Of a stretch of DNA of 64,000 nucleotides, positions 653 through 34,222 are shown one piece after another; position 1 is the first letter of the stretch, and the number at the start of each line of letters is the position of its first letter. Origin of the DNA: a virus (taxonomy: Duplodnaviria; Heunggongvirae; Uroviricota; Caudoviricetes); IMG/VR virus record IMGVR_UViG_3300009174_000004, positions 31,778-95,777 of that record; one strand, written 5' to 3'. The notes below the pieces were generated by a model that had not been told where the DNA came from, ran no database searches, and was given only the letters and a program-made list of their open reading frames with translations. Position numbers and translations under genes: made by a program.

Positions 653-762
653 CACGTCCTTGATGTCTCCAGCACCGGCTGTCGTTGGTCTGGACCTTAA
701 GGCACCAGGGCCTCAGGCATAGACGGTAGTACGGGAACTGCCTGTTGAACCAACGTTTCACG

Positions 763-836
763 TACCCGCAAGAGGATTCGAACCTCCGGCCTCCGCATCC
801 GTAGTGCGGCGCTCTAATCCGCTGAGCTATGCGGGC
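763..836 (-). tRNA. tRNA-Arg (anticodon ACG)
   Basis: Acceptor GCCCGCA/TGCGGGT. D arm GCTC..GAGC. Anticodon arm CCGCA-CTACGGA-TGCGG. T loop GGTTCGAATCC. Confidence 0.65.
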
Positions 837-927
837 TGGGAACTGCCGCCAGGTAATTAATAATTCACTAGCAGGACCAGGTCGAAGTGGCTTGATAGGA
901 GTTGTTAATTGTCCTGACGGCAGTTCG

Positions 928-1002
928 TGGGGATGGAAGGATTTGAACCTTCGGCCACCGACGTATCAGGTCGGCACTCTAACCAGGCTGAGTTACATCC
1001 CC
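928..1002 (-). tRNA. tRNA-Ile (anticodon GAT)
   Basis: Acceptor GGGGATG/CATCCCC. Anticodon arm CCGAC-CTGATAC-GTCGG. T arm GAAGG-TTCAAAT-CCTTC. Confidence 0.65.
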
Positions 1003-1069
1003 TAGGTGTCCGGCCTATCGGCCTACCCATACCGGACTGGTGGGACTACAGGTAATTGCCTATCCCAAG

Positions 1070-1155
1070 CGGAAGTGCTCGGATTCGAACCGAGGGACCT
1101 TTTTAGGGGCCACAGTCTTAGCAGGACTGCGCGATAGACCGCTCTGCCACACTTC
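1070..1155 (-). tRNA. tRNA-Ser (anticodon GCT), class II
   Basis: Acceptor GGAAGTG/CACTTCC. Anticodon arm CAGTC-CTGCTAA-GACTG. Long variable arm. T arm CTCGG-TTCGAAT-CCGAG. Confidence 0.65.
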
Positions 1156-1159
1156 CTTG

Positions 1160-1232
1160 TCGGGGTGGGGAGTCTCGAACTCCCGACCTCTTGACCCCCA
1201 GTCAAGCGCGCTGACCCCTGCGCCACACCCCG
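1160..1232 (-). tRNA. tRNA-Pro (anticodon GGG)
   Basis: Acceptor CGGGGTG/CACCCCG. Anticodon arm CTTGA-CTGGGGG-TCAAG. T arm GGGAG-TTCGAGA-CTCCC. Confidence 0.65.
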
Positions 1233-1398
1233 AGACTTACTTGGATCCTCCGCGCTCTCGCTCCCAGACGATCTCCATGGTGCGGGCCTTCCTGGAGCCC
1301 TGCCCCTCGAACTTCCAGCTAGTCGTCATCCCTCGTATCACCCAGCCCCAGTTGATTCTCGGGGCGGTCACGTTGGAACCAGACATTGGAAACCTTTC

Positions 1399-1575
1399 CT
1401 ACTCAGGGAACCGGAGGTTCCTCCAGTTCCCGCCGACGAACTCACGCCACTCCTCGGCAGTGAACTCGACTACTGGGCCATCAGGGTCTTGCGAGTTGCG
1501 CACCAGGACCACATCTTCCTTGTCCATGACCTCTACACAGCCGTTACTGTCGCATCTCCTGGACTTGATCCACAT
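1399..1575 (-). CDS. DUF397-like small protein (58 aa)
   Basis: Hand-translated below the ORF cutoff: MWIKSRRCDSNGCVEVMDKEDVVLVRNSQDPDGPVVEFTAEEWREFVGG... Confidence 0.5.
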   Translation of the reverse strand: MWIKSRRCDSNGCVEVMDKEDVVLVRNSQDPDGPVVEFTAEEWREFVGGNWRNLRFPE

Positions 1576-1853
1576 GGCTCCTCGCTCTCAATGAAGGGAC
1601 CTGGGTCCCAGGGCTGGTAGTCGTAGAACGACGACCTTGGGGTGACGAAGACCTCCTGGACCTCGGCCTTGTGCTTCAGTAGGCACTTGTCGCAGAGGAT
1701 GATGCGCAGGTGCCGGAGGTTGGACATCGGGTCGTAGACCGTGCTGCCGTACTGCCCACCGCTGGTGAAGACGGTGGCCCCGTAGGGCTGCTCGGGCCAA
1801 TGCTCCTTGTCGACAGACTCGGGCACGTACCCACACTTGAAACAAGGGATCAT
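1533..1853 (-). CDS. hypothetical zinc-finger protein (CxxC...CxxC), about 106 aa
   Basis: ORF 1533..1916 trimmed to the internal Met just downstream of tRNA-Asp: MIPCFKCGYVPESVDKEHWPEQPYG...ILCDKCLLKHKAEV. Its 3' end overlaps the DUF397 gene. Confidence 0.4.
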   Translation of the reverse strand: MIPCFKCGYVPESVDKEHWPEQPYGATVFTSGGQYGSTVYDPMSNLRHLRIILCDKCLLKHKAEVQEVFVTPRSSFYDYQPWDPGPFIESEEPCGSSPGDATVTAV

Positions 1854-1857
1854 CACG

Positions 1858-1930
1858 CGCTGCCGACGGGAGTCGAACCCGCACCAACCGGCCTGACAAG
1901 CCGGGACCCTAACCATTGGGCTACGACAGC
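1858..1930 (-). tRNA. tRNA-Asp (anticodon GTC)
   Basis: Acceptor GCTGTCG/CGGCAGC. Anticodon arm CCGGC-TTGTCAG-GCCGG. T arm CGGG-TTCGACT-CCCG. Confidence 0.65.
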
Positions 1931-1934
1931 TTGG

Positions 1935-2009
1935 TACCGACGTAGGGACTCGAACCCTAAAACACCTGATCCTAAGTCAGGCCGCTTGAGCCAATCAGCG
2001 TGCGTCGGC
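1935..2009 (-). tRNA. tRNA with anticodon TAG (Leu by anticodon) but a class-I fold with a 5-nt variable loop; the 3' CCA appears to be encoded
   Basis: Acceptor GCCGACG/CGTCGGT followed by A then CCA. Perfect anticodon arm CCTGA-CTTAGGA-TCAGG. T arm TAGGG-TTCGAGT-CCCTA. Confidence 0.5.
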
Positions 2010-2010
2010 G

Positions 2011-2079
2011 TGGAGCAAATCGGTATCGAACCGATCGGGGTCTCCTTGCAAGGGAGACCTGTGCACCAGCACCTGCCCC
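2011..2079 (-). tRNA. tRNA-Ala (anticodon TGC) with a reduced D arm (69 nt)
   Basis: Acceptor GGGGCAG/TTGCTCC including a G3:U70 wobble, the Ala identity element. Anticodon arm TCTCC-CTTGCAA-GGAGA. Perfect T arm ATCGG-TTCGATA-CCGAT. Confidence 0.45.
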
Positions 2080-2087
2080 ATATACAA

Positions 2088-2145
2088 CCCTAGGGGGCAC
2101 TACCTGCGCGCTGGCTCAGGTCCGCGAAACCCGAGGCCCCCTAGG
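2088..2145. repeat. Inverted repeat CCCTAGGGGGC / GCCCCCTAGG with a ~36-nt spacer; not a tRNA
   Basis: Arms of 10-11 bp read directly between two tRNA genes. No T-loop or D-loop motifs. Confidence 0.4.
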
Positions 2146-2149
2146 ATCG

Positions 2150-2223
2150 AGCCCACCCCCGGATTCGAACCGGAAACCTTCCGCTTACAAGGCGGCTGCA
2201 CAAACCGTCTGTGCTACGTGGGC
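2150..2223 (-). tRNA. tRNA-Thr (anticodon TGT)
   Basis: Acceptor GCCCACG/GGTGGGC with a 7:66 mismatch. D arm GCAC..GTGC. Anticodon loop CTTGTAA. T loop GGTTCGAATCC. Confidence 0.5.
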
Positions 2224-2278
2224 GAGACACTGACCTCGGTGCCAGTTCACCATAGGAGGCCAGCGTTCTCTTCCTGGG

Positions 2279-2467
2279 TTACTGCTGCGGTTGTGAACCA
2301 CCACCCTGGAAGTCATGCTCACCCTCGTGAGGGTGAGGAAGAATGCACCAGTGCTCTAGGTTCTCGTCAAGCTCTAAGCACTGGTCTGGAAGACCCATGA
2401 GGCGAGCGACTACGCGGCCCTGCCCGTCCATGGACATTGCGATGCCAAAGTATCCGGTCACGTTCAC
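2279..2467 (-). CDS. hypothetical small protein; putative GTG start overlaps the upstream stop as GTGA
   Basis: The C-terminal part of ORF 2279..2635 (…YFGIAMSMDGQGRVVARLMGLPDQCLELDENLEHWCILPHPHEGEH…) looks protein-like. The upstream part overlaps the neighbouring gene in another frame. Confidence 0.25.
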   Translation of the reverse strand: MNVTGYFGIAMSMDGQGRVVARLMGLPDQCLELDENLEHWCILPHPHEGEHDFQGGGSQPQQ

Positions 2468-2724
2468 CTCCAAGCGCTCCCTGAGATAGGACCCACGTCC
2501 ACATCTTCGTGGTCCTGAAGCTTGATCAGTTCTTGCCGAATGCTGCGCCAGATCACTCGCGCCTGCTTGAAGCCGCGCCTTCGGTTGGCCCTTTCGCCAT
2601 AGTGATCGCATCGACAAGTCTTGTAAAGGGGCCACATTTCATCCTGGTACCGGTACCAGCGGTGCCGTTCGTAAGAGTCAGCCTCCTGGACATGCCAGGG
2701 GCGATGGACGTCGGTGCGGGACAT
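2464..2724 (-). CDS. hypothetical small Cys/His-containing protein (86 aa)
   Basis: ORF-track translation has a non-repetitive composition and motifs CRCDHYG and WHVQEAD. Confidence 0.4.
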   Translation of the reverse strand: MSRTDVHRPWHVQEADSYERHRWYRYQDEMWPLYKTCRCDHYGERANRRRGFKQARVIWRSIRQELIKLQDHEDVDVGPISGSAWR

Positions 2725-2785
2725 GTAACGACCTGTCCTTCGGCCGCCTAGCCGCCATGGCTAGGACTAACGCCTCTCCATGACG

Positions 2786-3163
2786 TCACGTCCTTCCGGG
2801 CTTGGGCCAACAGGCCTTCACGATCTCGCTGTCCGAGCCCACTCGAAACTTGGCTAACACCTTGCGCTTCTTGTTGGTCAGGTAGTAGCACTTACAGTCC
2901 TGCTCTGCGGCTAGTGGCAGGTACTCAAGCGGATCACTGCGCCAATGCAGCTTGTCCCAGATCCACTCGGCAATCCTGAACCCCGGCACCTTGTAGATCC
3001 ACATGTCGTACCAGTGGTAGATCGTTGCCATGAGCCAGGGCCAGAACGGCTGCTCCCATAGCTCGACCATGTACCACACGTAGAGGTCGGTGCGCGTGCC
3101 GTCCTTCTTGATGAAGCCGTTAGGTGCACGTTCTCCGTGCTGCATCAGTGTGTATCCGCGCAA
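2786..3163 (-). CDS. hypothetical Trp-rich protein (125 aa)
   Basis: Translation MRGYTLMQHGERAPNGFIKKDGTRTDLYVWYMVELWEQPFWPW... has a globular-like composition. Confidence 0.45.
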   Translation of the reverse strand: MRGYTLMQHGERAPNGFIKKDGTRTDLYVWYMVELWEQPFWPWLMATIYHWYDMWIYKVPGFRIAEWIWDKLHWRSDPLEYLPLAAEQDCKCYYLTNKKRKVLAKFRVGSDSEIVKACWPKPGRT

Positions 3164-3357
3164 CCCTTTAGCTCCCTGCTGCTACCTGACTGAAGCTGGA
3201 CCGGCTCCTCGGGAATCTCGGGGCCAGGCGCAGGCTCAGACACCTTCGTCACCTTGGTGATTCCAGGGATCAGGCGCAAGGCACGGGACCAGTTCCCGGC
3301 ATACACGGTGCGTCGTCCCTTGGGCTTTCCCTTGCTGTACCTCGATCTCATCATCAC
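3145..3357 (-). CDS. hypothetical small basic protein (70 aa)
   Basis: ORF with a basic N-terminus (MMMRSRYSKGKPKGRR), overlapping the upstream gene by 19 nt. Confidence 0.3.
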   Translation of the reverse strand: MMMRSRYSKGKPKGRRTVYAGNWSRALRLIPGITKVTKVSEPAPGPEIPEEPVQLQSGSSRELKGCADTH

Positions 3358-3513
3358 CTGCCTAAGTATGGGGGGCGCAGATCTGGACTAAGGCCATAGG
3401 AGACCCGAAGAGAGCAGGGTTGTTTTAGCCCGTCATGATCCAGTCTTCAAGGCATCTAAAATGAAGATACCCTTATGCGATTCTCTCTTTCTTTACCTTG
3501 TTGACGCCCCATG

Positions 3514-3587
3514 TGCCCGCAACAGGAGTCGAACCTGCAAGCACCAGCACCTCATGCTGACGGCTTTGCCAATTTGCCTACACGGGC
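3514..3587 (-). tRNA. tRNA with anticodon GAG (Leu by anticodon) but a class-I fold (74 nt)
   Basis: Acceptor GCCCGTG/TGCGGGC. Anticodon arm TCAGC-ATGAGGT-GCTGG. T arm GCAGG-TTCGACT-CCTGT. Discriminator A. Confidence 0.45.
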
Positions 3588-3872
3588 CTAGTTGTAGTCC
3601 TGGCCGATCCTCAGTTCGCCCGCCTCTGGGTCGGCGCCGATGGCCTGGCAGATCTTCTCCCAGATCGGCCTGAGGCAGTCCGTGCACAGGTCCAGGCGAA
3701 CCCGGTCGTTGACGCACTCGTCCTCGTTGAGGGTGATCCTCAACTGGTTCGGGAACTTGTCCTCGTCGCCTGATTCGTGGTCAAGGTCCCGGCCGCACTT
3801 GTCGCACGTGATGGTTTCGATTGCCATGCGGCGCTCTACCATCTTCTTCTCGTACTTGATTTCCTTGGACAC
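3588..3872 (-). CDS. zinc-ribbon protein (two CxxC pairs), 94 aa
   Basis: Translation contains TCDKCGRD ... CTDCLRP. The gene is packed exactly between two tRNAs (stop at 3588-3590; the next tRNA ends at 3587). Confidence 0.5.
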   Translation of the reverse strand: MSKEIKYEKKMVERRMAIETITCDKCGRDLDHESGDEDKFPNQLRITLNEDECVNDRVRLDLCTDCLRPIWEKICQAIGADPEAGELRIGQDYN

Positions 3873-3873
3873 G

Positions 3874-3948
3874 CACCCCGAGGAGGATTCGAACCTTAGC
3901 CATTCCCTGGTCCAGAGCCAGGTGTCCTGCCAGTTAGACGATCGGGGT
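3874..3948 (-). tRNA. tRNA-Gln (anticodon CTG)
   Basis: Acceptor ACCCCGA/TCGGGGT with discriminator G. D arm GTCT..GGAC. Perfect anticodon arm CCTGG-CTCTGGA-CCAGG. T loop TTCGAAT, though the T stem is weak. Confidence 0.5.
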
Positions 3949-3953
3949 AGGAC

Positions 3954-3989
3954 GGGGGCACCCTGTCACGGGGGTAAGAGGGTGCCCCC
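3954..3989. other. Stable GC-rich hairpin (11-bp stem GGGGGCACCCT/AGGGTGCCCCC, 14-nt loop) with no U-tract
   Basis: Read directly from sequence. Lies between tRNA-Gln and the HNH gene. Confidence 0.4.
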
Positions 3990-4202
3990 GGGGGCCAGCC
4001 GGTTGGAGGTTGCCCTGGGGAGGGTACCAACCGCCGGTTCCACCACCTCAAAGCCAGAGGGCCTTGAGGCTCTTCTCCATTCGGATCATCGCCAGAACTG
4101 CCGTCTCTGCAGCGTAGGGGTTGATCCGAAGGAGGTCTGGTGCCATCTGTTCCAGCATCAGGTAGACCCTCACTGCCTCGACGGCAGGGTCCAGCTTCAT
4201 TC

Positions 4203-4646
4203 TCACCGTCTCAGGTTGGCCCATGTAGGCGCCTCCGGCTTGACTTGAAGGACCATACCGGCCTCTTGCGGGGTCCGGTCGCCCTTGCGCTGGTTGCAGG
4301 GATCACACGAGGCCACCGTGTTGGTCCAGGTGTTCTTCCCACCCCTGGAGGTGGGAATGACGTGGTCCACGGTGATGCCTGTGTGGCCGTTGCAGTAGCT
4401 GCAGGTGAAGTTGTCCCGACGTAGCACGCCACTACGTGACCAGGACGGTCCCGCCGTGTAGCGCCACTTGGTGACGATGTACCTCACCAGCTTGACGACC
4501 TTGGGCATACCCCAAGGTCCGTACCGTATGTCAGGCTCCGATTCGTGGACCTCTGCCACACCACGGCAAAGCATCCGGATCGCGTGCCTGAGGCTGACCC
4601 GGTGCAGTGGTCCTAGGTCAGCGTTGAGAACTAGGACTGCTTGCAC
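4203..4646 (-). CDS. HNH endonuclease
   Basis: Translation contains CSYCNGHTGITVDHVIPTSRGGKNTWTNTVASCDPCNQRKGDRTP, the HNH signature (C-x2-C ... DH ... N ... C-x2-C). Confidence 0.8.
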   Translation of the reverse strand: MQAVLVLNADLGPLHRVSLRHAIRMLCRGVAEVHESEPDIRYGPWGMPKVVKLVRYIVTKWRYTAGPSWSRSGVLRRDNFTCSYCNGHTGITVDHVIPTSRGGKNTWTNTVASCDPCNQRKGDRTPQEAGMVLQVKPEAPTWANLRR

Positions 4647-4711
4647 TGGGTGCTCCTTTCCGTCCTAGAAGCCCATGTCCTTCCCTTTCGCTGGGCTGTG
4701 TATAAGAAACG

Positions 4712-4782
4712 TGCGGCCGAGCAGACTCGAACTGCCTCCTGCGCCTTGGCAAAACGCCGTGCAACCCCTACACCACGACCAC
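4712..4782 (-). tRNA. tRNA-Gly (anticodon GCC), 71 nt
   Basis: Acceptor GTGGTCG/CGGCCGC with two G-U pairs. Anticodon arm GCGTT-TTGCCAA-GGCGC. T arm GGCAG-TTCGAGT-CTGCT. Confidence 0.55.
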
Positions 4783-4885
4783 AACTTGTTAGTAGTCAAT
4801 CCAGGCAACTATCACTGCGGTGATGCTAAGCAGCAATGCCCCCAGGGTCAGTAGTACTACAGCGATCCTTGATCTGTCATTCACG

Positions 4886-4960
4886 AGCCGGCGCCGAGCC
4901 TCGAACTCGGTTCTCTCCGCTTACGAGACGGGGGTTTTAACCAGATTAAACTACCCCGGC
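4886..4960 (-). tRNA. tRNA-Thr (anticodon CGT)
   Basis: Acceptor GCCGGGG/CGCCGGC. D arm GTTT..AAAC. Anticodon loop CTCGTAA. T arm CCGAG-TTCGAGG-CTCGG. Confidence 0.5.
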
Positions 4961-5037
4961 TTAAGGTTCCCTGGCATCAGTCTTCGCTGTGGAGCGAATC
5001 ACACACATCGGATCTCACTTCCGAACCAGGGAACCCG

Positions 5038-5110
5038 AGCCCAAGGTCAGAATCGAACTGACCCCTCGGACTTACCACGTCCGCGCTCTCACCAGTCGAG
5101 CTACATGGGC
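5038..5110 (-). tRNA. tRNA-Thr (anticodon GGT)
   Basis: Acceptor GCCCATG/CTTGGGC. D arm GCTC..GAGC. Perfect anticodon arm CGGAC-GTGGTAA-GTCCG. T arm GTCAG-TTCGATT-CTGAC. Confidence 0.6.
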
Positions 5111-5118
5111 AGGCGGCG

Positions 5119-5523
5119 CTAAACTTCAGCGCCGTTGCGAAGATCCTTCGCCGTTTCCTCGAAGAGATCAATGACTTCTTCGACAGTGCGGCTGGGCACA
5201 TCGTTCCAGAGGGGAAGGTTGAAGGGGTAGGTCAACCCTTCCTCCTGCGCACGCTTAACCAGCTTCTTGTCCAGCGCATTCTTGGCGGCGTAGAAGAGGT
5301 CGTTCGCCTTCTTGATCTGCCACACCAGGGCACCAGCGCTGCAAACCTCAGCTATCGCCGGATCGAGTACCCCACCAGGGCACATTATCGAGATCTTATC
5401 GCCGGAGCCGTCGCGTGCCATCGTCTTCTGTGTCCAGCCGATGGTCCCATCTCGCCAGGCCCGGGCGCTATTCTCCAGAACCTCGGCGACCTTGTTGTTC
5501 CAGTCGATGTTCCAGTTCTTCAT
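5119..5523 (-). CDS. hypothetical protein (134 aa)
   Basis: ORF with balanced composition (MKNWNIDWNNKVAEVLENSARAWRDGTIGW...). The stop abuts the tRNA-Thr 5' end. Confidence 0.45.
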   Translation of the reverse strand: MKNWNIDWNNKVAEVLENSARAWRDGTIGWTQKTMARDGSGDKISIMCPGGVLDPAIAEVCSAGALVWQIKKANDLFYAAKNALDKKLVKRAQEEGLTYPFNLPLWNDVPSRTVEEVIDLFEETAKDLRNGAEV

Positions 5524-5741
5524 TTGCTCTTCTCCAGGGTTCTCTGCGTCTCATCTTTTCCGCGTTCGTTCCGCAATGCTGGCGTGTTGCCAGCACAGTG
5601 CCTCGCGATCGACTACCCGGGTTGCCTTGCGTTGACAACTCCACGTTGACGAAGCCCACGAGCTACCGAACGCTTGCGCTGTCGTCACTGCCTGACACCA
5701 TCCAAGGTCAGGCGTTGCTTCCTTGTCCATCTGGTCCTCCG

Positions 5742-5815
5742 CTCCGGGTGCGAGACTCGAACTCGCAGGTTCCAGATCCAAAGTCTGGCCACGGACGCCG
5801 ATGCCGTACCCCGGA
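5742..5815 (-). tRNA. tRNA-Gln (anticodon TTG)
   Basis: Acceptor TCCGGGG/ACCCGGA (U1-A72) with discriminator G. Perfect anticodon arm CCAGA-CTTTGGA-TCTGG. T arm GCGAG-TTCGAGT-CTCGC. Confidence 0.6.
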
Positions 5816-5970
5816 TTAACTGTCCTCGTCGACTCCCTCCTCAAAGACAAGTTCCTCTGGGTAGCAGCCGAATTGGGCCTTGAACGACTCACGCTGGAAG
5901 GCGAGCGCCTCAGCGACCTGTTCCGGGTCCCCGGACAGGAGAGCCTGAAGTACTACCTCAGGACCCTTGT

Positions 5971-6138
5971 CTAGTCTGGCCACACCCAGCCTCGCTTCTC
6001 AGCATCATTCGCTGCGCGCTCGTACCAGTGGCCGCGTTCCTCTGGTGGAAGATCGAAGAACTCTGAGCCAGTTTCTTCTCTGGCTTTCTCGTACCAGTAG
6101 CTGCGTTCTTCTGCCGGTAGATCATGGAAATCAACCAT
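5971..6138 (-). CDS. hypothetical 55-aa protein with an internal tandem duplication
   Basis: Hand-translated: MVDFHDLPAEERSYWYEKAREETGSEFFDLPPEERGHWYERAANDAEKRGWVWPD. The duplicated unit is LPxEERxxWYE. The start abuts the 3' end of tRNA-Gly. Confidence 0.4.
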   Translation of the reverse strand: MVDFHDLPAEERSYWYEKAREETGSEFFDLPPEERGHWYERAANDAEKRGWVWPD

Positions 6139-6139
6139 G

Positions 6140-6213
6140 TGCGGATGCCGGGGCTCGAACCCGATTCCTTCTGTTTGGAAGACAGACGTGCAAACCTGTT
6201 ACACCTCATCCAC
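6140..6213 (-). tRNA. tRNA-Gly (anticodon TCC)
   Basis: Acceptor GTGGATG/CATCCGC. Perfect anticodon arm TCTGT-CTTCCAA-ACAGA. T arm TCGGG-TTCGAGC-CCCGG. Confidence 0.6.
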
Positions 6214-6324
6214 GTTGCCCCAGTCACCCCACCTTGACTGGAACGCTTGCGTCCCGTGATGCTCCATTCACTAGACGCACTCCCGAGCACCTAGGCTCAT
6301 TCGTCTTTCTGGCCTTCCTAGGCG

Positions 6325-6399
6325 AGGACCGTACGGGGCTCGAACCCGCAATACTCCGACTTGAGAGGCCGGTGAGTTTACCAATTCCTCCAACGGTCC
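6325..6399 (-). tRNA. tRNA-Glu (anticodon CTC)
   Basis: Perfect acceptor GGACCGT/ACGGTCC. Anticodon arm CCGGC-CTCTCAA-GTCGG. T arm GCGGG-TTCGAGC-CCCGT. Confidence 0.6.
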
Positions 6400-6487
6400 A
6401 GACGTAAGGCAAGGAGTCAACCTGTCCAGGATTTCCTTCTGGTTGTTACCATCTTCATCCCGTTCACTCTCGGTTCCTTGCCCTACG

Positions 6488-6559
6488 TATCTCCTGACGG
6501 AATCGAACCGCCGCAGTCCGGGCTTCAACCGGATGCTCTACCACCTAAGCTAAGGAGAC
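6488..6559 (-). tRNA. tRNA-Phe (anticodon GAA)
   Basis: Acceptor GTCTCCT/AGGAGAT. D arm GCTT..GAGC. Anticodon arm TCCGG-TTGAAGC-CCGGA. T arm GGCGG-TTCGATT-CCGTC. Confidence 0.6.
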
Positions 6560-6595
6560 ATGGGGCACAAGATTCGTGCCCTTTGTGCTGTTGAA

Positions 6596-7021
6596 TCAGT
6601 TCGTTGGGTGCTGGAACCAGATCGAACTGCCGGAGTTCCCGGGAGGGAAGCAGCTTCCGAACCAGGCCCCTGCCCAACCTGACTGGGTGCAGTTCTTGAA
6701 CTGTCCCTGATAGACCGTGGCGATGGCCGTGCCGGAGCAGCCCGCGTTCTCGTAGATCGTTGCTGACCAGCCCCACGTGAGCTTCATCGACCCGATCTGA
6801 TCGTTGATCGCAGGACCGAAGGGAATGCATTGGCTCGAAGCTGGCGACGTCCAGTAGTAGGCGGGATTGCTGCCACCGGGCCAGGCGGCGTACCAGACGC
6901 AGATGTGGGTTGGTCCACACGCTTCTCCATGTGCTGATGCTGGGGCCTCGGCAGCCACTGCTATTCCCAGACCCAGGATCACAGCACCGATAGCCGCTGC
7001 GATCCTTCGACGAGCGCTCAT
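6596..7021 (-). CDS. secreted Cys-containing protein (signal peptide plus ~110-aa mature domain)
   Basis: From the internal Met: MSARRRIAAAIGAVILGLGIAVAAEAPASA, then a Cys/Trp/Gly-rich domain (GEACGPTHICVWY...CSGTAIATVYQGQFKNC). Confidence 0.5.
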   Translation of the reverse strand: MSARRRIAAAIGAVILGLGIAVAAEAPASAHGEACGPTHICVWYAAWPGGSNPAYYWTSPASSQCIPFGPAINDQIGSMKLTWGWSATIYENAGCSGTAIATVYQGQFKNCTQSGWAGAWFGSCFPPGNSGSSIWFQHPTN

Positions 7022-7059
7022 GCAAGCTCCTCTTCTTGGACTCAACAAAGCCTTGAAGG

Positions 7060-7125
7060 AAACCACGGCGGGATTCGAACCACGCATCTAGTGCGTCCAC
7101 CACTCTTCCGTTGAGCTACGTGATT
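7060..7125 (-). tRNA. degenerate tRNA-like element (66 nt) with acceptor, D and T-loop motifs but poor T and anticodon stems (possible TAG/CTA loop)
   Basis: Acceptor AATCACG/CGTGGTT. D arm GCTC-AACGGAA-GAGT. TTCGAAT present but with only 2-3 bp of T stem. Anticodon arm ACGC-ACTAGAT-GCGT. Confidence 0.25.
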
Positions 7126-7130
7126 TCCAG

Positions 7131-7202
7131 GGATCGCGATGGGACTCGAACCCACAACCCAGCGTTTTAGAAACGCCTGCTCTGCCGTTAAGCTACGCGA
7201 TC
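7131..7202 (-). tRNA. suppressor-type tRNA with anticodon CTA (reads UAG amber)
   Basis: Acceptor GATCGCG/CGCGATC. D arm GCTT-AACGGCA-GAGC. Anticodon arm GGCGT-TTCTAAA-ACGCT with canonical U33 and A37. T arm GTGGG-TTCGAGT-CCCAT. Confidence 0.55.
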
Positions 7203-7450
7203 GTCGATCCGTACCAGCTTGTGCAATCGAACTCGCAGTCCTCGATGATCAGGCAATTATCCCAGTCGAGATCTGCAACATGCTCCGAACCAAGCTCCTC
7301 AGCAACAATGCGCTCAGCAAACTCCCGAGGAGTTTCGTTGAACGGGGAGCCAAGCTCGAACCCTTCACGTTCGCCATCCACGTATATGGCGTGGCCGCAA
7401 CAACCGGTGTCGCAGCCGTACCGCTCGTGGTACACGACGACCTTCGTCAT
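7193..7450 (-). CDS. hypothetical Cys-rich protein (85 aa)
   Basis: Translation MTKVVVYHERYGCDTGCCGHAIYVDGEREGF... The 3' end overlaps the 5' end of the CTA tRNA by ~10 nt. Confidence 0.4.
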   Translation of the reverse strand: MTKVVVYHERYGCDTGCCGHAIYVDGEREGFELGSPFNETPREFAERIVAEELGSEHVADLDWDNCLIIEDCEFDCTSWYGSTIA

Positions 7451-7527
7451 GTTCCCTCCCCTCTTAGCTAAGGGATGGAGCCGGCGGGGGAGGGGTTACC
7501 TGTCCCCTAGGCTTCCCCACGCCGACG

Positions 7528-7600
7528 TGGACCTACCCGGACTCGAACCGGGAACCTCCTGTCTGCCAGACAGGTGCTCAACCAATTGAGCTATAAGCCC
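7528..7600 (-). tRNA. tRNA-Ala (anticodon GGC)
   Basis: Acceptor GGGCTTA/TAGGTCC with G3:U70. Perfect anticodon arm CCTGT-CTGGCAG-ACAGG. T arm CCCGG-TTCGAGT-CCGGG. Confidence 0.6.
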
Positions 7601-7762
7601 GCGTTCCCCGAAAGTATTGATACCAACGGCTTCAAGCCTGTGATCTCCACCGTGGCCAGGAGAACACCCAGTCGCGACTAGATGACTCCACTACCTTCGA
7701 GGTCGCCGCGAGGTCAGGGGATTGGGCTGATCATTCCCAACCCGAAGGCGCCTGCCTCAGTG

Positions 7763-7834
7763 TGGATCGAACCGGATTTGAACCGGCATCTCCCGCCCCA
7801 AATGCGGGGCTCTGCTCTCTTGAGCTACCAACCC
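7763..7834 (-). tRNA. tRNA with anticodon TTG (Gln by anticodon) but a G3:U70-bearing acceptor stem
   Basis: Acceptor GGGTTGG/TCGATCC (three G-U pairs including 3:70) with discriminator A. Perfect anticodon arm CCCGC-ATTTGGG-GCGGG. T arm GCCGG-TTCAAAT-CCGGT. Confidence 0.45.
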
Positions 7835-7946
7835 AGGCGACATACAGGACCCGGATACCGCCCTCGCTGACTATGGACCCCACCTCGCGATTCCATCCAC
7901 GGGAAGGAGGTTCGGACTCAGCAGTGCGTATGTCAGACACATGCCC

Positions 7947-8022
7947 GTCGGGACGGTCGGATTTGAACCGACGACCCCCTGGTCCCAAACCAGGTGCGCT
8001 AGACCAGACTGCGCTACGTCCC
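7947..8022 (-). tRNA. tRNA-Pro (anticodon TGG)
   Basis: Perfect acceptor CGGGACG/CGTCCCG. D arm GCGC..GCGC. Anticodon arm CCTGG-TTTGGGA-CCAGG. T arm GTCGG-TTCAAAT-CCGAC. Confidence 0.65.
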
Positions 8023-8194
8023 GTAAGTCCTAGCCTTGGTTCTGTGCTGCTCCATCTCGTCCATCTCCGGAACCCTGCTTACGCATTGTCGCCAGTGTCG
8101 GTATCTGGTATCGCATCTCGTCCCAAGGCTAGGACGTATACATGCTGTCCACTGTGGAGTTCTCAAATCACAGGTCCTCAGTTCCCCGAGGAAG

Positions 8195-8266
8195 CGCCGA
8201 TGCAAGGATTCGAACCCTGTCCGACCGGGTTGGAGCCGGTCATGCTTACCGTTACACCACATCGAC
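8195..8266 (-). tRNA. tRNA-Trp (anticodon CCA)
   Basis: Acceptor GTCGATG/CATCGGC. Perfect anticodon arm ACCGG-CTCCAAC-CCGGT. T arm CAGGG-TTCGAAT-CCTTG. Confidence 0.6.
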
Positions 8267-8585
8267 AATGTTCAGTTAGAAAGAACCGCCCCCAGGGGCG
8301 TGGTTCCTGAGGGCGGCTTAGGGATCTTGGATCCCCCTTACCTGACCCTAGGCCGACCAGCGAACCGATTCCAGGTCGCCATGGACGTGGCGCATCGCGG
8401 CAGGTGCTGCCGCTTTGTCCCACTGGTCCACAACATCCCTGTTCCCCTAGATCTATCGCCTTGCTCCTGAGCTTAGGGCCGGGGCCCCGGGTTGACAACC
8501 TTGAACATTGGGGCCTGGCTGCGAGCTTCTGTGTGACACCTAGAACTGTACCCGTACATCAGGGTGGTGTCAATCCCCATTTTGC

Positions 8586-11651: not shown

Positions 11652-11951
11652 ATGATATGGGCCTCCTTGCTCCTTGTCACCCTGGCCGTCGCCAGGATTA
11701 CGAGGCTGGTAACGACGGACCGCATCATGGTGAGCTTTCGCCGTTGGGTCGTGAATCGTTGGGGCGAGGAATCTGAGGCCGCCTATCTAGCTCATTGCCG
11801 GTGGTGCGCCAGTATCTGGATTGCAGTGCCGGCTGCTGTTGGTTGGGCAATGCTCACTCTTCCTCTTCACCTGTGGTGGCTGGCTGGGCCAGCCTGGTTG
11901 GCTATGTCTCACGTGACTGGCCTGCTGTCCAGACTGGAGGAGCAGGACTAG
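11652..11951 (+). CDS. small membrane protein with an HCRWCASIW motif (possibly DUF1360-like)
   Basis: Two or three hydrophobic helices. The stop abuts the portal start. Confidence 0.45.
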   Translation: MIWASLLLVTLAVARITRLVTTDRIMVSFRRWVVNRWGEESEAAYLAHCRWCASIWIAVPAAVGWAMLTLPLHLWWLAGPAWLAMSHVTGLLSRLEEQD

Positions 11952-13895
11952 ATGGCTTGGAAGAGGAGCAACAACGCGCTGGCCGTTGTCTCAGATACCC
12001 CAGCGCCCGCCCGTCGTTCCCTACTCGCCAGCGCAATGCACATGAGAATGGACCAACAGTCCTACAACTCATGGCGCTTCAATGACGAAACGTGGCAGCG
12101 GGAGCTATGGCGCCTGTACGACATCGTCCCCGAGTTCGGCTTTGCTGCCCGATGGGTGGGGCACTGCTGCTCGCGCGTCCGCATTTACGTAGCGAAGGTT
12201 GATGACCTCGGCCGAGTTCAAGGTGAAGCAAAACAGGCCAAGATCACGGCCCTGAGCGATTCCCTTTTCGGTGGCCCTGCTTCCAAGGCTGAGGCGCTAC
12301 GGAACATGGGCATTGACCTGACCGTGGCCGGTGAGTGCTACATCGTCGGCCGCCCCGGTGACGACGACGATCAGGACGAGTGGTACGTCCTGTCTTCATC
12401 GGAGATGCGACGAATTCGCGGCGCCAACGGGGAGTGGAACTGGGGCTGGTGTGGGCCCGGACAGCCCATGAAGATCGACCTTACCCGGAACTTAGTCACC
12501 CGGGTTTGGACCCCGCACCCCCAGCGGGTCTGGTGCGCCGACGCTCCCTCCAGGTCCTGTCAGCCCACGCTGCGGCTGCTGGAGCAGTTAAACAAGTACA
12601 TCTTCTCGCAAATAGACTCTCGCCTCGTCGGTGCCGGCCTGTTGATCATGCCTAACAACGTGGACCTGCCCGACGACCCGAACCTCAGTGCCGGCGAGTC
12701 GCTGATGCAGCGGATGGCCACCGCCGGTGCCGCCAGCCTGCGAGGCGAAGGATCTGCCCTGGGCGTCCTTCCCATGATCATTGAGTCGGAGAATGCCGAA
12801 GGCTGGAAGCTTCTCAGTTTCGAGTCTGAGCTTTCCAAGCAGGCCATCGAGCTTCGTAAAGAGGCCGTCGAGCGCCTGGGTGTCGGCATGGACATGCCCC
12901 CCGAGGTCCTTACGGGGCTAGGCGACGCCAACCACTGGCAGGGCTACCTGGTCGATGGTCAAGGCATCAAGGTTCACATCGAACCGTTGATGACAAGGAT
13001 CTGCGACGCCCTCACCAAGGCCTATCTGAAGCCCGCCCTCAAGCTCATGGGCGAGGACCCGAAGCGCTTCACCTACGCCTACGACACCAGCCCCCTGGTC
13101 GTACGACCCCAGCGCCTGCAGGATGCGCTGAACCTGTACGAGAAGGGCGCCATCAGCCTGCAGGCCCTGCGTGAGGCCGGGTACTTCAAGGAGTCGGACG
13201 CTCAGACCGAGGACGAGAGCGCCGGGCTGCTGACCAAGGAAGTCCTGCTCCGCGACCCTCAGCTATTCCAGAACGCGGCCGTCCGCCATGCCGCTGGAAT
13301 CCCCGAGAGCGTCATTCCACAGACCTCAATGGTTGCCCCCACGGCCCAAAGCATCAGCATGGGACCCGGAGGGGCTATTGGTGGTGGCGGAGGATCTGGC
13401 CCCCCACCTCCGCCACCACCGCCCACCGGAATCATGGACGAGGGCCCTCAGCCCATCCCTCAGACGCCGATGAATCCGGCCACCCGCGAGTCGCCGGATA
13501 TGGGTCCTCCGCCGAATGGCCTAGCAGCTTCTGCCTGGACCACCCAGGAGATGGGCGTCGTTGTCCTGGCCGAGGCAACGGTGCGCCGAGGGCTGGAGCT
13601 AGCCGGCAAGCGGCTGCTGACCAACCAGAACCGACACCGGTTCCCGGACGTACCTCACATGGAACTGCACACCCGCATCACGGTGCAGGACCAGGCGCAT
13701 GCCAACCGACTGCTCCTTGGCGCCTGGAGCCAGTTGGACGCCATGACCAAGTTCGTGGCCGACGACTTCGACACCGCGCGCCTGCAGCAGAGCCTGACCA
13801 AGTACTGCTCCACCCTGCTCGTTCGAGGCATTGCCCACGACCCACCGAGCCTGCTGGCGGCGCTCCAGCGGGATGGCGTCGTCCATGCCAAGTAA
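11952..13895 (+). CDS. putative portal protein (647 aa) with a C-terminal Gly/Pro-rich tail
   Basis: Size and position immediately upstream of the MuF-like and prohead-protease genes. No Walker A motif, so not a terminase. Poly-Gly/Pro tract GGGGGSGPPPPPPPPTG near the C-terminus. Confidence 0.5.
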   Translation: MAWKRSNNALAVVSDTPAPARRSLLASAMHMRMDQQSYNSWRFNDETWQRELWRLYDIVPEFGFAARWVGHCCSRVRIYVAKVDDLGRVQGEAKQAKITALSDSLFGGPASKAEALRNMGIDLTVAGECYIVGRPGDDDDQDEWYVLSSSEMRRIRGANGEWNWGWCGPGQPMKIDLTRNLVTRVWTPHPQRVWCADAPSRSCQPTLRLLEQLNKYIFSQIDSRLVGAGLLIMPNNVDLPDDPNLSAGESLMQRMATAGAASLRGEGSALGVLPMIIESENAEGWKLLSFESELSKQAIELRKEAVERLGVGMDMPPEVLTGLGDANHWQGYLVDGQGIKVHIEPLMTRICDALTKAYLKPALKLMGEDPKRFTYAYDTSPLVVRPQRLQDALNLYEKGAISLQALREAGYFKESDAQTEDESAGLLTKEVLLRDPQLFQNAAVRHAAGIPESVIPQTSMVAPTAQSISMGPGGAIGGGGGSGPPPPPPPPTGIMDEGPQPIPQTPMNPATRESPDMGPPPNGLAASAWTTQEMGVVVLAEATVRRGLELAGKRLLTNQNRHRFPDVPHMELHTRITVQDQAHANRLLLGAWSQLDAMTKFVADDFDTARLQQSLTKYCSTLLVRGIAHDPPSLLAALQRDGVVHAK

Positions 13896-14607
13896 GGGGG
13901 CTGAGGAGTCGGTGTTCAAGGCTGCGTCTACGGGACTGAAGCGGTGGCTCAACCGCGCCCGTGATGCCGTCATGGCCCCGTTCCGCCAGTTCAAGGCGCA
14001 GCCGAATCCGCAGGCCATCACCGCCACTGTTCCGGCGTGGCAGGCGCAGGTTGACCGGATCATCGCTGCCCTGACCCCGGCGCTGCAGGAGGGCTGGGCC
14101 GGCGCCCATCTTCCTGGCGACTATGACCCGCGTGACCCGTACATCCAGGCGAATCTGGCGCTGACCTACAACCTATTGGTCCGGATCCCAGACGAGGTTC
14201 ACGCCAAGGTGGTGGCCCAGATCCTTGAGGGCACCAACGCCGGGGAGACCGTCGATCAGATCGCTCATCGGGTCGAGCAGGTCCTGACCTACACCGGCAG
14301 CGAGAACTGGGATGGGCGGGCCAGGCTCATCGCCCAGACGGAGACAACTCGTCACGCCGCTAGTTCCATGCTGGCCCATGCCCTACTGGTCGCGAAGCAG
14401 GACAAGCGCTCACTGGAGAAGCGCTGGGACACGATCATGGACGATCGCGAACGCGACGCTCACCGCCACGTGAATGGTCAGACAGTTCCCCTTGGTCAGC
14501 CATTCCTCGTCGAAGGTTTCCCGATGATGCACCCAGGCGACCCTAAGGCGCCGCCGAACCTCGTATGCGGCTGCCGTTGCTCCCTACATATCCAGGAGGT
14601 GGCCTGA
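13873..14607 (+). CDS. MuF-like / SPP1 gp7-family head morphogenesis protein (short form, ~245 aa)
   Basis: C-terminal signature DDRERDAHRHVNGQTVPLGQPF...HPGDPKAPPNLVCGCRCSL matches D-x-R-x-R-x2-H ... P-x-H ... N/G-C-R-C. Start chosen at the Met just past the portal stop. Confidence 0.65.
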   Translation: MASSMPSKGAEESVFKAASTGLKRWLNRARDAVMAPFRQFKAQPNPQAITATVPAWQAQVDRIIAALTPALQEGWAGAHLPGDYDPRDPYIQANLALTYNLLVRIPDEVHAKVVAQILEGTNAGETVDQIAHRVEQVLTYTGSENWDGRARLIAQTETTRHAASSMLAHALLVAKQDKRSLEKRWDTIMDDRERDAHRHVNGQTVPLGQPFLVEGFPMMHPGDPKAPPNLVCGCRCSLHIQEVA

Positions 14608-32530: not shown

Positions 32531-34222
32531 ATGGAATTCGAGATCCCCGAGGCTTCCAGCCTTCCTCGGTTCACGGTCGCGGCTCTTCGTGACCTGGGCC
32601 TTGAGGCCGCCGCCACCTATGACGCTATCCGCGAGACCCTGACCCCCGAATCAGCCACCGACGAAGACCTAGACGACCTCGAAGACCTGTCGGCCTTCAT
32701 GGTCCTGTGCGACGACGAACTGTCCAAGCGCCGCGATCGTGCCGGCCGCTTCAACGCCCTCCCAACGGCCATGGCCGACGAGGACGAGGAAGACGACAAC
32801 GCCGACGAGGAAGACGCAGAAGACGCAGAGGCCTCGATGGCTCCTGCCCCTGCCGCCAAGGGCAAGAGGTCGAGCACTAGCTACGCCGCTGATGTTTCCC
32901 GGCTTCCTTCGGTGAGCGACATCGCCGCTTCTGGCAACCAGGTCCTTGAGGGTGAGGTCGTCACCGACGAGGACAACAGGCCACAGTTCCGCATCCTGGC
33001 GGCTGCCGACACCGGCTTCTCGGCCGGACAGGAACTGGACGGCTGGCTGGACGTGGCCAAGGCCTTCGTCGCCCGGTCGCGCACCCACGGTGGTGGCACC
33101 GCCCAGCAGAGCACCGTCGCCACGATTCGTCGCGAGTTCGGCAGCGACTTCTCCGTCAGCGACGGCGACGACGACGTCACGATCATGCAGAAGATCGACT
33201 TCGCTCGGGACGAGAAGCGTCTCCCCGGCGGGTCCCTGCTCGCTGGTGTTGGCTGGTGTGCCCCGTCCGAGACGATCTACACCACCTGCAACCAGATCAC
33301 GACCGACGGTCTGCTGTCCTTGCCTGAGATCGGCGCCCGTCGTGGCGGCATCCGGCACAACCAGGGCATCCAGTTCGACACGATCTTCGGCTCGGGTACC
33401 GGCTTCAACATCCTGACTGAGGCCCAGGTCATCTCCGACACCACCAAGACCTGTGTCGCCATCCCATGTCCAGCGTTCGTGGACGACCGGCTCAAGGTCG
33501 CGGCCCTGTGCCTCACCGGCGACATCCTGCAGAACCGGGGCTACCCCGAGTTCGTCAGCGAGTTCGTCCAGGGCGCCATCGCTGCCCAGGCCCACAACGT
33601 CAACCGTCAGATCATCGCTGACATCGTCACCGACTCCACCGCCGTCGACCTGACTGCCTGCGCTCCGTGGAACGTGGATCTATCGGTCGTGTCCCAGGTC
33701 ATGTCGGCCGTGGAAGTTGCCACCGTCGACATCCAGTACCGGCTGCGTCTGCAGCGGGACCAGACCCTGGAGGTCGTGTTCCCGTACTGGCTCAAGGCTC
33801 AGATGCGGGCTGACTGGATCCGGCGCAACGGCCCCATGGACCCCGACCTGGCCGACAGCCAGATCGAGGCGCTCCTGCGGACCAGGCACGCTCGGCCACA
33901 GTGGATCTACGACTGGCAGGACTCCTTCACCAGCACCGGCGTTTCCGGTGGTCCATTCCCCGGCTCGGACGTTCCGATCTGTGCCCTGCCCACTCAGGTC
34001 AAGTTCCTGATCTACCCGGCCGGCACCTGGGTCGTGGCTCGCCAGGACGTCATCCGGCTCGACACCATCTACGACAGCGTCAACATCACCACCAACAAGG
34101 TGACTCAACTCTTCCTCGAAGATGGCTTCCGAGCTATGAGGTTCTGCCCCGTCTCCAGGGTCTACACGATCAACATCTGCTCAAGCGGTAGCACCGGTGT
34201 GCAGCGGGTCGTGACCTGCTAA
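32531..34222 (+). CDS. putative major capsid protein (HK97-like) with an acidic scaffold/delta-like N-terminal region
   Basis: Position after the protease/scaffold gene. The N-terminal ~120 aa are highly acidic (DEDLDDLEDL...DEDEEDDNADEEDAEDAEA). The remainder is globular (…GIRHNQGIQFDTIFGSGTGFNILTEAQVISDTTKTC…). Start chosen at the Met with GAGAGG 12 nt upstream; the ORF track begins at 32513. Confidence 0.45.
   Translation: MEFEIPEASSLPRFTVAALRDLGLEAAATYDAIRETLTPESATDEDLDDLEDLSAFMVLCDDELSKRRDRAGRFNALPTAMADEDEEDDNADEEDAEDAEASMAPAPAAKGKRSSTSYAADVSRLPSVSDIAASGNQVLEGEVVTDEDNRPQFRILAAADTGFSAGQELDGWLDVAKAFVARSRTHGGGTAQQSTVATIRREFGSDFSVSDGDDDVTIMQKIDFARDEKRLPGGSLLAGVGWCAPSETIYTTCNQITTDGLLSLPEIGARRGGIRHNQGIQFDTIFGSGTGFNILTEAQVISDTTKTCVAIPCPAFVDDRLKVAALCLTGDILQNRGYPEFVSEFVQGAIAAQAHNVNRQIIADIVTDSTAVDLTACAPWNVDLSVVSQVMSAVEVATVDIQYRLRLQRDQTLEVVFPYWLKAQMRADWIRRNGPMDPDLADSQIEALLRTRHARPQWIYDWQDSFTSTGVSGGPFPGSDVPICALPTQVKFLIYPAGTWVVARQDVIRLDTIYDSVNITTNKVTQLFLEDGFRAMRFCPVSRVYTINICSSGSTGVQRVVTC

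Follow-up and report, generated by a model that had tools for sequence, protein, structure and literature searches.

The phage described here carries a gene for a tRNA with the anticodon CUA that, judged by its pattern of substitutions, is under purifying selection on both its fold and its anticodon loop, in a genome that uses the standard genetic code and in which TAG is a common stop codon. We lean toward the view that this tRNA, charged by the host, would compete with release factor 1 (RF1) and bring about partial read-through of UAG; its expression, charging and suppressor activity, the efficiency of suppression and its selective benefit are what we infer from the DNA. The window, by which we mean the whole 64,000-nt stretch that was analysed (positions 31,778 to 95,777 of IMG/VR record IMGVR_UViG_3300009174_000004), derives from an ENA contig of 104,809 bp (ERZ27252315:k141_259995), of which record positions 1-103,299 were rebuilt by walking with exact-protein look-ups, giving 103.3 of 104.8 kb, or 98.6% of the genome. 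Megablast of the region against cultured phages returned no match, that is, no close cultured relative. The phage has a GC content of 61.7% and is an uncultured, siphovirus-like phage of about 105 kb that probably infects Actinomycetota; the host assignment follows from the portal protein, which is about 31% identical to the portals of Arthrobacter, Microbacterium and Actinoplanes phages, and from the small DUF397 proteins and other actinobacterial DUFs that the phage encodes. The positions of the features in the window are given in Table 1.

Table 1. Positions of features within the 64,000-nt window
Feature	Position	Strand	Evidence or remark
22 tRNA genes called by ARAGORN	762..8266	minus	array runs past window position 1
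Atypical tRNA	1932-2009	minus	
Atypical tRNA	3513-3587	minus	
HNH endonuclease gene (PF01844)	4203-4646	minus	inside the tRNA array
tRNA-like element, 66 nt	7060..7125	minus	Rfam RF00005, 37.6 bits; no ARAGORN call
CUA tRNA gene (amber-suppressor type)	7131..7202	minus	ARAGORN; Rfam RF00005; orthologue covariation
85-aa ORF	7193-7450	minus	10-nt overlap with the CUA tRNA gene
Atypical tRNA	7762-7834	minus	
Sigma-70-like promoter match, TTGACA-17-TACAGT	8545..8573	minus	some 280 nt 5' of the array's first tRNA
Portal	11952-13895		PHROG match
Protease/scaffold fusion	14565-16886	plus	PHROG match
5043-aa ORF	16894-32025	plus	
Major head protein	32513-34222		PHROG match
Tape measure protein	39047-41128		PHROG match

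ARAGORN called a tRNA with anticodon cta on the minus strand at 7130-7202, labelled 'tRNA-Pyl' by convention, and the Rfam model RF00005 was matched along its entire length (model positions 1-71 of 71) by 7131-7202 of the minus strand with 61.4 bits (gathering score 29; E = 7.3e-11 for the whole window). The initial annotation had described a well-formed 72-nt phage tRNA with the anticodon CUA, and its coordinates, length and loop are correct; the strand, which it had not given, is minus. In 5' to 3' order, the RNA is made up of GAUCGCG, UA, GCUU, AACGGCA, GAGC, A, GGCGU, the anticodon loop UUCUAAA and ACGCU, followed by GGGUU, GUGGG, UUCGAGU, CCCAU, CGCGAUC and C. These segments form the standard class-I cloverleaf of an elongator-type tRNA, with a 7-bp acceptor stem, and the 72 nt extend to the discriminator C73; CCA is not encoded, and is encoded by just 4 of the 37 tRNA genes in the phage. 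Read from the sequence, the positions involved in tertiary interactions are complete (U8-A14, G18G19, A15-U48 and T54-C56), and U33, A37, A38 and the T-loop UUCGAGU are likewise present. The minimum-energy fold of the naked sequence differs from the cloverleaf (z = -1.9), a departure that is common for tRNAs, and the cloverleaf is settled by the covariance-model alignment together with covariation. A better fold with a sense anticodon in the loop, against which the initial annotation had wished its reading to be tested, is not given by any alternative register. Efficient readers of UAG have their anticodon in just this loop context, Y32-U33-C34-U35-A36-A37-A38. Because an identical copy is present in an independent sample (L086, Logan SRR6056502) and near-identical variants are found in JGI metagenomes, the gene is not an assembly artefact. 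A blastn search of E. coli genomes with the tRNA gave no match, and an exact search of IMG/VR with the anticodon arm returned 51 matches, all of them due to chance and none a tRNA. The TAG that ends the 85-aa ORF upstream is formed by U8-A9-G10 of the tRNA; this ORF is also a called gene on the ENA source contig and has no family match.

The tRNA-like element begins 5 nt past the discriminator base of the CUA tRNA. Its acceptor, D and T arms are intact, and its anticodon arm has collapsed to a 3-bp stem with a 4-nt loop. The element lies in tandem with the CUA tRNA in every relative that carries the same CUA tRNA (family 1, below), and the junction GATCCCTGGAAATCA is kept in L054, L090, L091 and L092. 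Rather than a decoder, the element is probably a decayed tRNA or a partner in processing. Its internal sequence is CUAGA in the window phage and CAGGA in the L054 type. A match to YrlA (Y RNA-like) that spans the tRNA pair was dismissed at 28 bits, against a gathering score of 69.

Relatives were gathered from IMG/VR through the portal protein and comprise groups at 98% and at 59-73% identity, along with four distant ones at 30-35%; tRNA arrays are syntenic in all relatives of the 98% and 59-73% groups. Relatives reached through the Metallophos protein (L093-L095) had no tRNAs nearby. Family 1 occupies a slot with the order Ala(GGC), CUA tRNA, tRNA-like element and Phe, and pattern searches for it in which the anticodon was left free returned CUA versions only. 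It comprises four distinct sequences, namely those of the window (the same as in L086), L090, L054 (the same as in L089 and L092) and L091, the extremes being 77% identical. Standard pairs fill 84 of 84 pair cells (21 of 21 pairs in each of the four variants), whereas a control with slid pairing partners was 37-48% paired, and two-sided, compensatory changes have occurred in five pairs (5:68, 28:42, 30:40, 31:39 and 50:64). The anticodon loop varied at position 32 alone (U or C), next to an anticodon stem in which three of five pairs have changed, and C73 was present in all four variants.

A second CUA tRNA, designated family 2, was found in L061, L062 and L063 (Rfam, 50.2 bits), where it lies between Pro(UGG) and Trp(CCA) and has the loop CUCUAAA and the discriminator A73. 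Its identity to family 1 is about 61%, the background level for tRNAs, and by this comparison it is a second CUA tRNA acquired independently in a sister lineage. All seven variants of the two families have the loop YUCUAAA. The conservation of this loop beside covarying stems, and the convergence of family 2 on it, argue for a decoding function rather than a decayed gene, and the substitutions as a whole indicate purifying selection on the fold and the anticodon loop. The other relatives lack a CUA tRNA (in L072 the complete array of about 39 tRNAs was seen, none of them CUA), so the trait is sporadic in the clade. In relatives, the slot between tRNA-Phe and tRNA-Ala(GGC) holds Ala(CGC), an odd 'Thr(CGT)' or Ile(TAT). 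The 'Thr(CGT)' tRNA, on the minus strand of L054 (5117-5191), L055 (103-177), L061 (4750-4824) and L063 (502-576), is 100% identical across phages whose portals are only 67% identical and is absent from the window phage; its anticodon is at position 33 of an irregular anticodon arm, and it scores 46.5 bits against the Rfam tRNA model.

When the nearest neighbours of the CUA tRNA were sought among 213 clade tRNAs and the genome's 36 other tRNAs, no parent isotype emerged. The best match within the genome was Lys-UUU (57 of 73 positions), Lys-CUU, Trp and Leu-UAA matched at 50-52, and the best non-orthologue across the clade reached 52-53; the top matches, at 50-57 of 73, are at background level. 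Descent from a resident sense tRNA through one anticodon change was rejected, there being no near-identical sense paralogue or orthologue and the free-anticodon search having returned CUA tRNAs only. In bacterial genomes, a search by pattern located these D and T arms in Thr-UGU (107), His-GUG (10) and Gly-UCC (3) tRNAs; since tRNAs of three isotypes share them, these arms are not isotype-specific. In bacteria, C73 is characteristic of tRNA-His, and some bacterial tRNA-His genes with C73 share the D arm, T arm and variable loop of the CUA tRNA. An origin from tRNA-His fits C73 but fails on G-1, which the phage's own tRNA-His has; position -1 of the CUA tRNA is C in both the window and L054. 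C73 without G-1 fits no bacterial identity set, and charging of the CUA tRNA may be poor. A36A37A38, a determinant for MiaA, is typical of readers of UNN codons and would permit i6A37 modification; by established identity rules, U35 would favour LysRS or the Gln/Glu enzymes.

In the mechanism that we favour, the CUA tRNA would be transcribed together with the minus-strand tRNA array and excised by RNase P together with processing at the 3' side, where the neighbouring tRNA-like element probably helps to set its end; the host enzyme would add CCA, and a host aminoacyl-tRNA synthetase would charge it. The charged tRNA would then contend with RF1 at UAG, so that a fraction of the ribosomes in the infected cell would read through. 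The initial annotation had stated that the tRNA would read UAG, and UAG read-through is indeed the sole decoding activity possible for such a tRNA. The efficiency of suppression is probably low or partial. An argument against read-through is that it should be costly, as 45 of 119 genes end with TAG and the median in-frame extension after these stops is 42-50 codons. Such extensions are longer than those after TGA or TAA, both in the window phage and in the family-2 loci. Tandem stops were not enriched after TAG genes relative to TGA or TAA genes, fusion with the next gene by read-through was not commoner after TAG (6 of 45) than after TAA (6 of 27), and the base following TAG had no evident bias. 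The genome is thus without adaptation to suppression, and nothing buffers read-through. The 5-codon extension that had been noted after the TAG at 16884-16886 is there as described (WPHGH, followed by TGA). Either suppression would be weak or partial, or its cost would be tolerated for some benefit.

The same observations can be read as those of a non-decoding or near-neutral passenger, which would serve as processing punctuation in the array or would be a poorly charged by-product of tRNA turnover. We regard this as unlikely, though it accounts for several features: the Phe/Ala(GGC) slot is a hot spot of turnover, C73 without G-1 suggests weak aminoacylation, the genome shows no adjustment to suppression, and CUA tRNAs are distributed sporadically. 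A role in processing, however, would not fix six of the seven loop bases, including CUA, while three of the five adjacent stem pairs changed, and the convergence of a second, unrelated tRNA on the same loop would be left unexplained.

The A-site mRNA interferase RelE prefers UAG, and a UAG-reading tRNA could serve in counter-defence by quickly occupying the A site at UAG and thereby shielding the many UAG-terminated phage messages from RelE-type mRNA interferases, by rescuing CAG-to-UAG damage from host deaminases or by acting as a decoy for a nuclease that targets tRNAs; we think such a role quite unlikely. Phage tRNAs are known to counter tRNA-targeting defences (PMC10264068, PMC11555353, PMC11464382), and 'stop codon (cta)' is listed among the RelE-related anticodons (PMC10264068). 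The phage also encodes, outside the window, a GGQ-only RF-1-domain protein, which could possibly rescue stalled ribosomes, and a polynucleotide kinase-phosphatase, an activity considered below. The link is purely circumstantial, however: no defence system or target was identified, the CUA tRNA could not replace host sense tRNAs, and an association in occurrence between the GGQ-only protein and the CUA tRNA was rejected, as the protein is present alike in relatives with and without the tRNA. It is a decidedly speculative and improbable proposal that a UAG-reading tRNA acquired at least twice by a TAG-rich, standard-code clade represents deliberate, phage-controlled manipulation of termination. 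Such manipulation could consist in shielding UAG-terminated messages from RelE-like interferases, possibly together with the GGQ-only protein, or in a global read-through switch that would remodel the host and phage proteomes during infection.

In 119 genes of the phage called with a self-trained codon-usage model, the stops were TAG in 45, TGA in 47 and TAA in 27, and among the 112 gene calls on record for the ENA contig they were TAG in 39% (44), TGA in 44% and TAA in 17%; TAG therefore ends 38-39% of genes by two independent gene sets. The initial annotation had taken TAG to be a normal stop, and the five stops that it cited are present (16884, 36995, 38401, 38975 and 46237). TAG is one of the two commonest stops of the phage, which is unusual at about 62% GC. 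Across the clade, rough gene calls put the TAG share of stops at 38-76% in loci with and without a CUA tRNA; by such calls TAG is the commonest stop in several relatives, the 76% being 22 of 29 stops pooled over three overlapping loci.

Within 103.3 of the 104.8 kb, scans for TAG codons in frame and flanked on either side by coding potential turned up nothing but adjacent genes in the same frame, each with its own start codon. At one such site that was examined, TAG 62993 followed by GGAGGAAGCAATG, a Shine-Dalgarno sequence is present, and the TAG at 11949 immediately precedes the ATG of the portal gene. A naive homology scan of all sequences that carry a CUA tRNA against their relatives yielded 311 raw in-frame TAG matches, all of which lay in non-coding frames of conserved DNA and disappeared after a coding-frame filter (0 of 311 with TAG in the coding frame). 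The portal, terminase, major capsid, tape-measure and primase genes and the 5043-aa ORF are intact under code 11. Moreover, orthologues share the same last residue yet interchange TAG, TAA and TGA. The 99-aa ORF upstream of the portal gene ends with TAG here, with TAA in L061-64 and with TGA in L065, L066 and L071; the protease/scaffold gene ends with TAG here and with TAA or TGA elsewhere; and the portal gene ends with TAA here and with TAG in most relatives, including the family-2 phages that carry a CUA tRNA. The only release factor-related gene encodes a 73-aa GGQ domain without codon-reading domains, and no aminoacyl-tRNA synthetase Pfam match is on record for the called genes. We conclude that the phage uses the standard code and that the CUA tRNA is not part of a changed genetic code; since no in-frame TAG is present in the 103.3 kb covered, the tRNA is not a decoder of a sense codon.

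Two apparent cases in relatives were rejected. A single 773-aa ORF joins a MuF-like N-terminal part to a protease/scaffold C-terminal part here (the protease/scaffold fusion of Table 1) and in the 98% relatives, and in most relatives of 62-73% identity the two parts are separate genes; these lie in different frames and do not represent TAG read-through. An in-frame TAG in the MuF-like head gene of L072 (13355-13357) arose, as compared with the near-identical L059, through a 1-nt deletion that is followed after 9 nt by a 1-nt insertion, together with one substitution. Given this paired deletion and insertion and the fact that the phage has no CUA tRNA, the TAG probably reflects a defective variant or an error of assembly.

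These results bear on the reading of the tRNA as a dedicated decoder of recoded in-frame TAG, either in a code-15-like system or partially in late or lysis genes, which we consider highly improbable. In gut phages, suppressor tRNAs are strongly tied to the recoding of TAG, and they are also carried, as presumed intermediates, by a few relatives that use the standard code (Borges et al. preprint). Recoded phages have low GC, are depleted of TAG and have in-frame TAG in late genes, and some encode RF2 (Borges et al. preprint). The window phage, in contrast, has a GC content of 62%, uses TAG for 38-39% of its stops and exchanges it with TAA and TGA at the same orthologous C terminus, and has no in-frame TAG in 98.6% of its genome. 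The initial annotation had linked the tRNA to late-stage recoding and had suggested that it might decode an in-frame TAG elsewhere in the genome; neither idea held, as no hallmark of TAG-recoded phages is present and no credible in-frame case exists in the 103.3 kb covered. Recoding is close to refuted for the genome of the window phage.

The resemblance to code-15 gut phages (crAss-like, Lak, phAss-1 and others) lies in a CUA tRNA that is found among other phage tRNAs and is presumably charged by the host; in the gut phages TAG stands in frame within structural and lysis genes, GC is low and TAG stops are few, none of which applies here. That the tRNA is a pyrrolysine tRNA, as the ARAGORN label has it, is almost certainly wrong: the CUA anticodon alone agrees, whereas every architectural hallmark of tRNA-Pyl (a 6-bp anticodon stem, a 3-nt variable loop, a short D-loop that lacks GG, a single base separating the acceptor stem from the D stem and an atypical T-loop) differs from what is found here (a 5-bp anticodon stem, a 5-nt variable loop, the 7-nt D-loop AACGGCA with GG, UA at positions 8-9 between the two stems and the canonical T-loop TTCGAGT), and the called genes of the contig have no PylS- or PylBCD-like Pfam match.

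Further parallels to the CUA tRNA are the 'tRNA-Pyl(cta)/tRNA-TERM' of the Aeromonas T5-like Shenzhenvirus and the tRNA-Sup(TTA) of Klebsiella phage phiKp24, which are stop-anticodon tRNAs in large arrays of phages with an otherwise standard code. The Aeromonas tRNA has the loop CUCUAAA and shares the T arm GUGGG-UUCGAGU-CCCAU with the CUA tRNA of the window, to which it is about 82% identical over 59 nt, mostly at generic tRNA positions; the cultured phages with such 'Sup' tRNAs differ from the window phage in host phylum and in phage lineage. Laboratory amber suppressors (E. coli supE, supF and Su7; T4 psu1) are anticodon mutants one base away from a resident sense tRNA. The CUA tRNA resembles them in the decoding logic of CUA versus RF1 and in the loop context CUAAA, but it lacks a close sense paralogue and has been kept in natural phages that have diverged from one another.

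Stop-anticodon tRNAs in the arrays of standard-code phages are thus already known as unexplained database entries. What is new here is the evidence of purifying selection, the second, independent acquisition within the clade and the nearly complete demonstration of a standard code with TAG as a major stop. Phage suppressor tRNAs are at present explained almost wholly by recoding in low-GC gut phages, and the window phage is a counter-example, in that a CUA tRNA that is maintained by selection and has arisen twice is found in a soil-type phage clade of high GC where TAG is one of the two commonest stops and recoding is absent. Should the tRNA be active, read-through in itself can be of benefit to phages, and this clade would provide a tractable system for the role of a natural suppressor in a standard-code virus. 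If it is inactive, caution is called for in reading recoding into 'tRNA-Sup' or 'tRNA-Pyl' annotations.

The 37 tRNA genes of the phage cover all 20 amino acids; one array holds 36 of these genes, and one lies elsewhere. The array, of about 14 kb, is on the opposite strand between the large terminase and portal genes, and its tRNAs are interspersed with small ORFs, small DUF397 and DUF6197 proteins and the HNH endonuclease gene. The large terminase gene (contig record 88032-89471) is not in the window but some 13 kb past its position 1. The sigma-70-like match upstream of the first tRNA is a possible promoter of the array; because such matches are no more numerous than in shuffled sequence, it is only a lead. 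The discriminators of the other tRNAs mostly follow bacterial rules (tRNA-His, for example, has G-1, C73 and CCA), and the set therefore looks built for charging in a bacterial host. Among the atypical tRNAs in the window, two 'Leu' tRNAs (UAG and GAG) have short variable arms of class-I length, and a second 'Gln(UUG)' tRNA lacks the D-loop GG and has A73; the positional orthologue of the latter in L054 was called Arg(UCU).

The giant 5043-aa ORF, flanked by the protease/scaffold gene and the major capsid gene, has a strong A>T skew of 0.24-0.34. Its lone Pfam hint, an ADP-ribosyltransferase near the N terminus, is below threshold (20.8 bits against a cut-off of 23.4), and open frames of more than 2000 codons are present at the same place in L066 and L071. 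The GGQ-only protein of 73 aa is encoded outside the window on the plus strand (L099 16735-16956, contig record 98990-99211). It consists solely of the peptidyl-tRNA-hydrolase domain with GGQ that is known from class-I release factors (PF00472, 53 bits; motif SGGKGGQNQNK), may be an ArfB-like ribosome rescue factor, and was found in 39 IMG/VR contigs, carriers and non-carriers of a CUA tRNA included. The polynucleotide kinase-phosphatase, an enzyme type used in tRNA repair and found here alongside a complete tRNA set, is encoded on the minus strand (L099 20189-21044) and has AAA_33 and HAD_PNKP domains (E = 8e-46).
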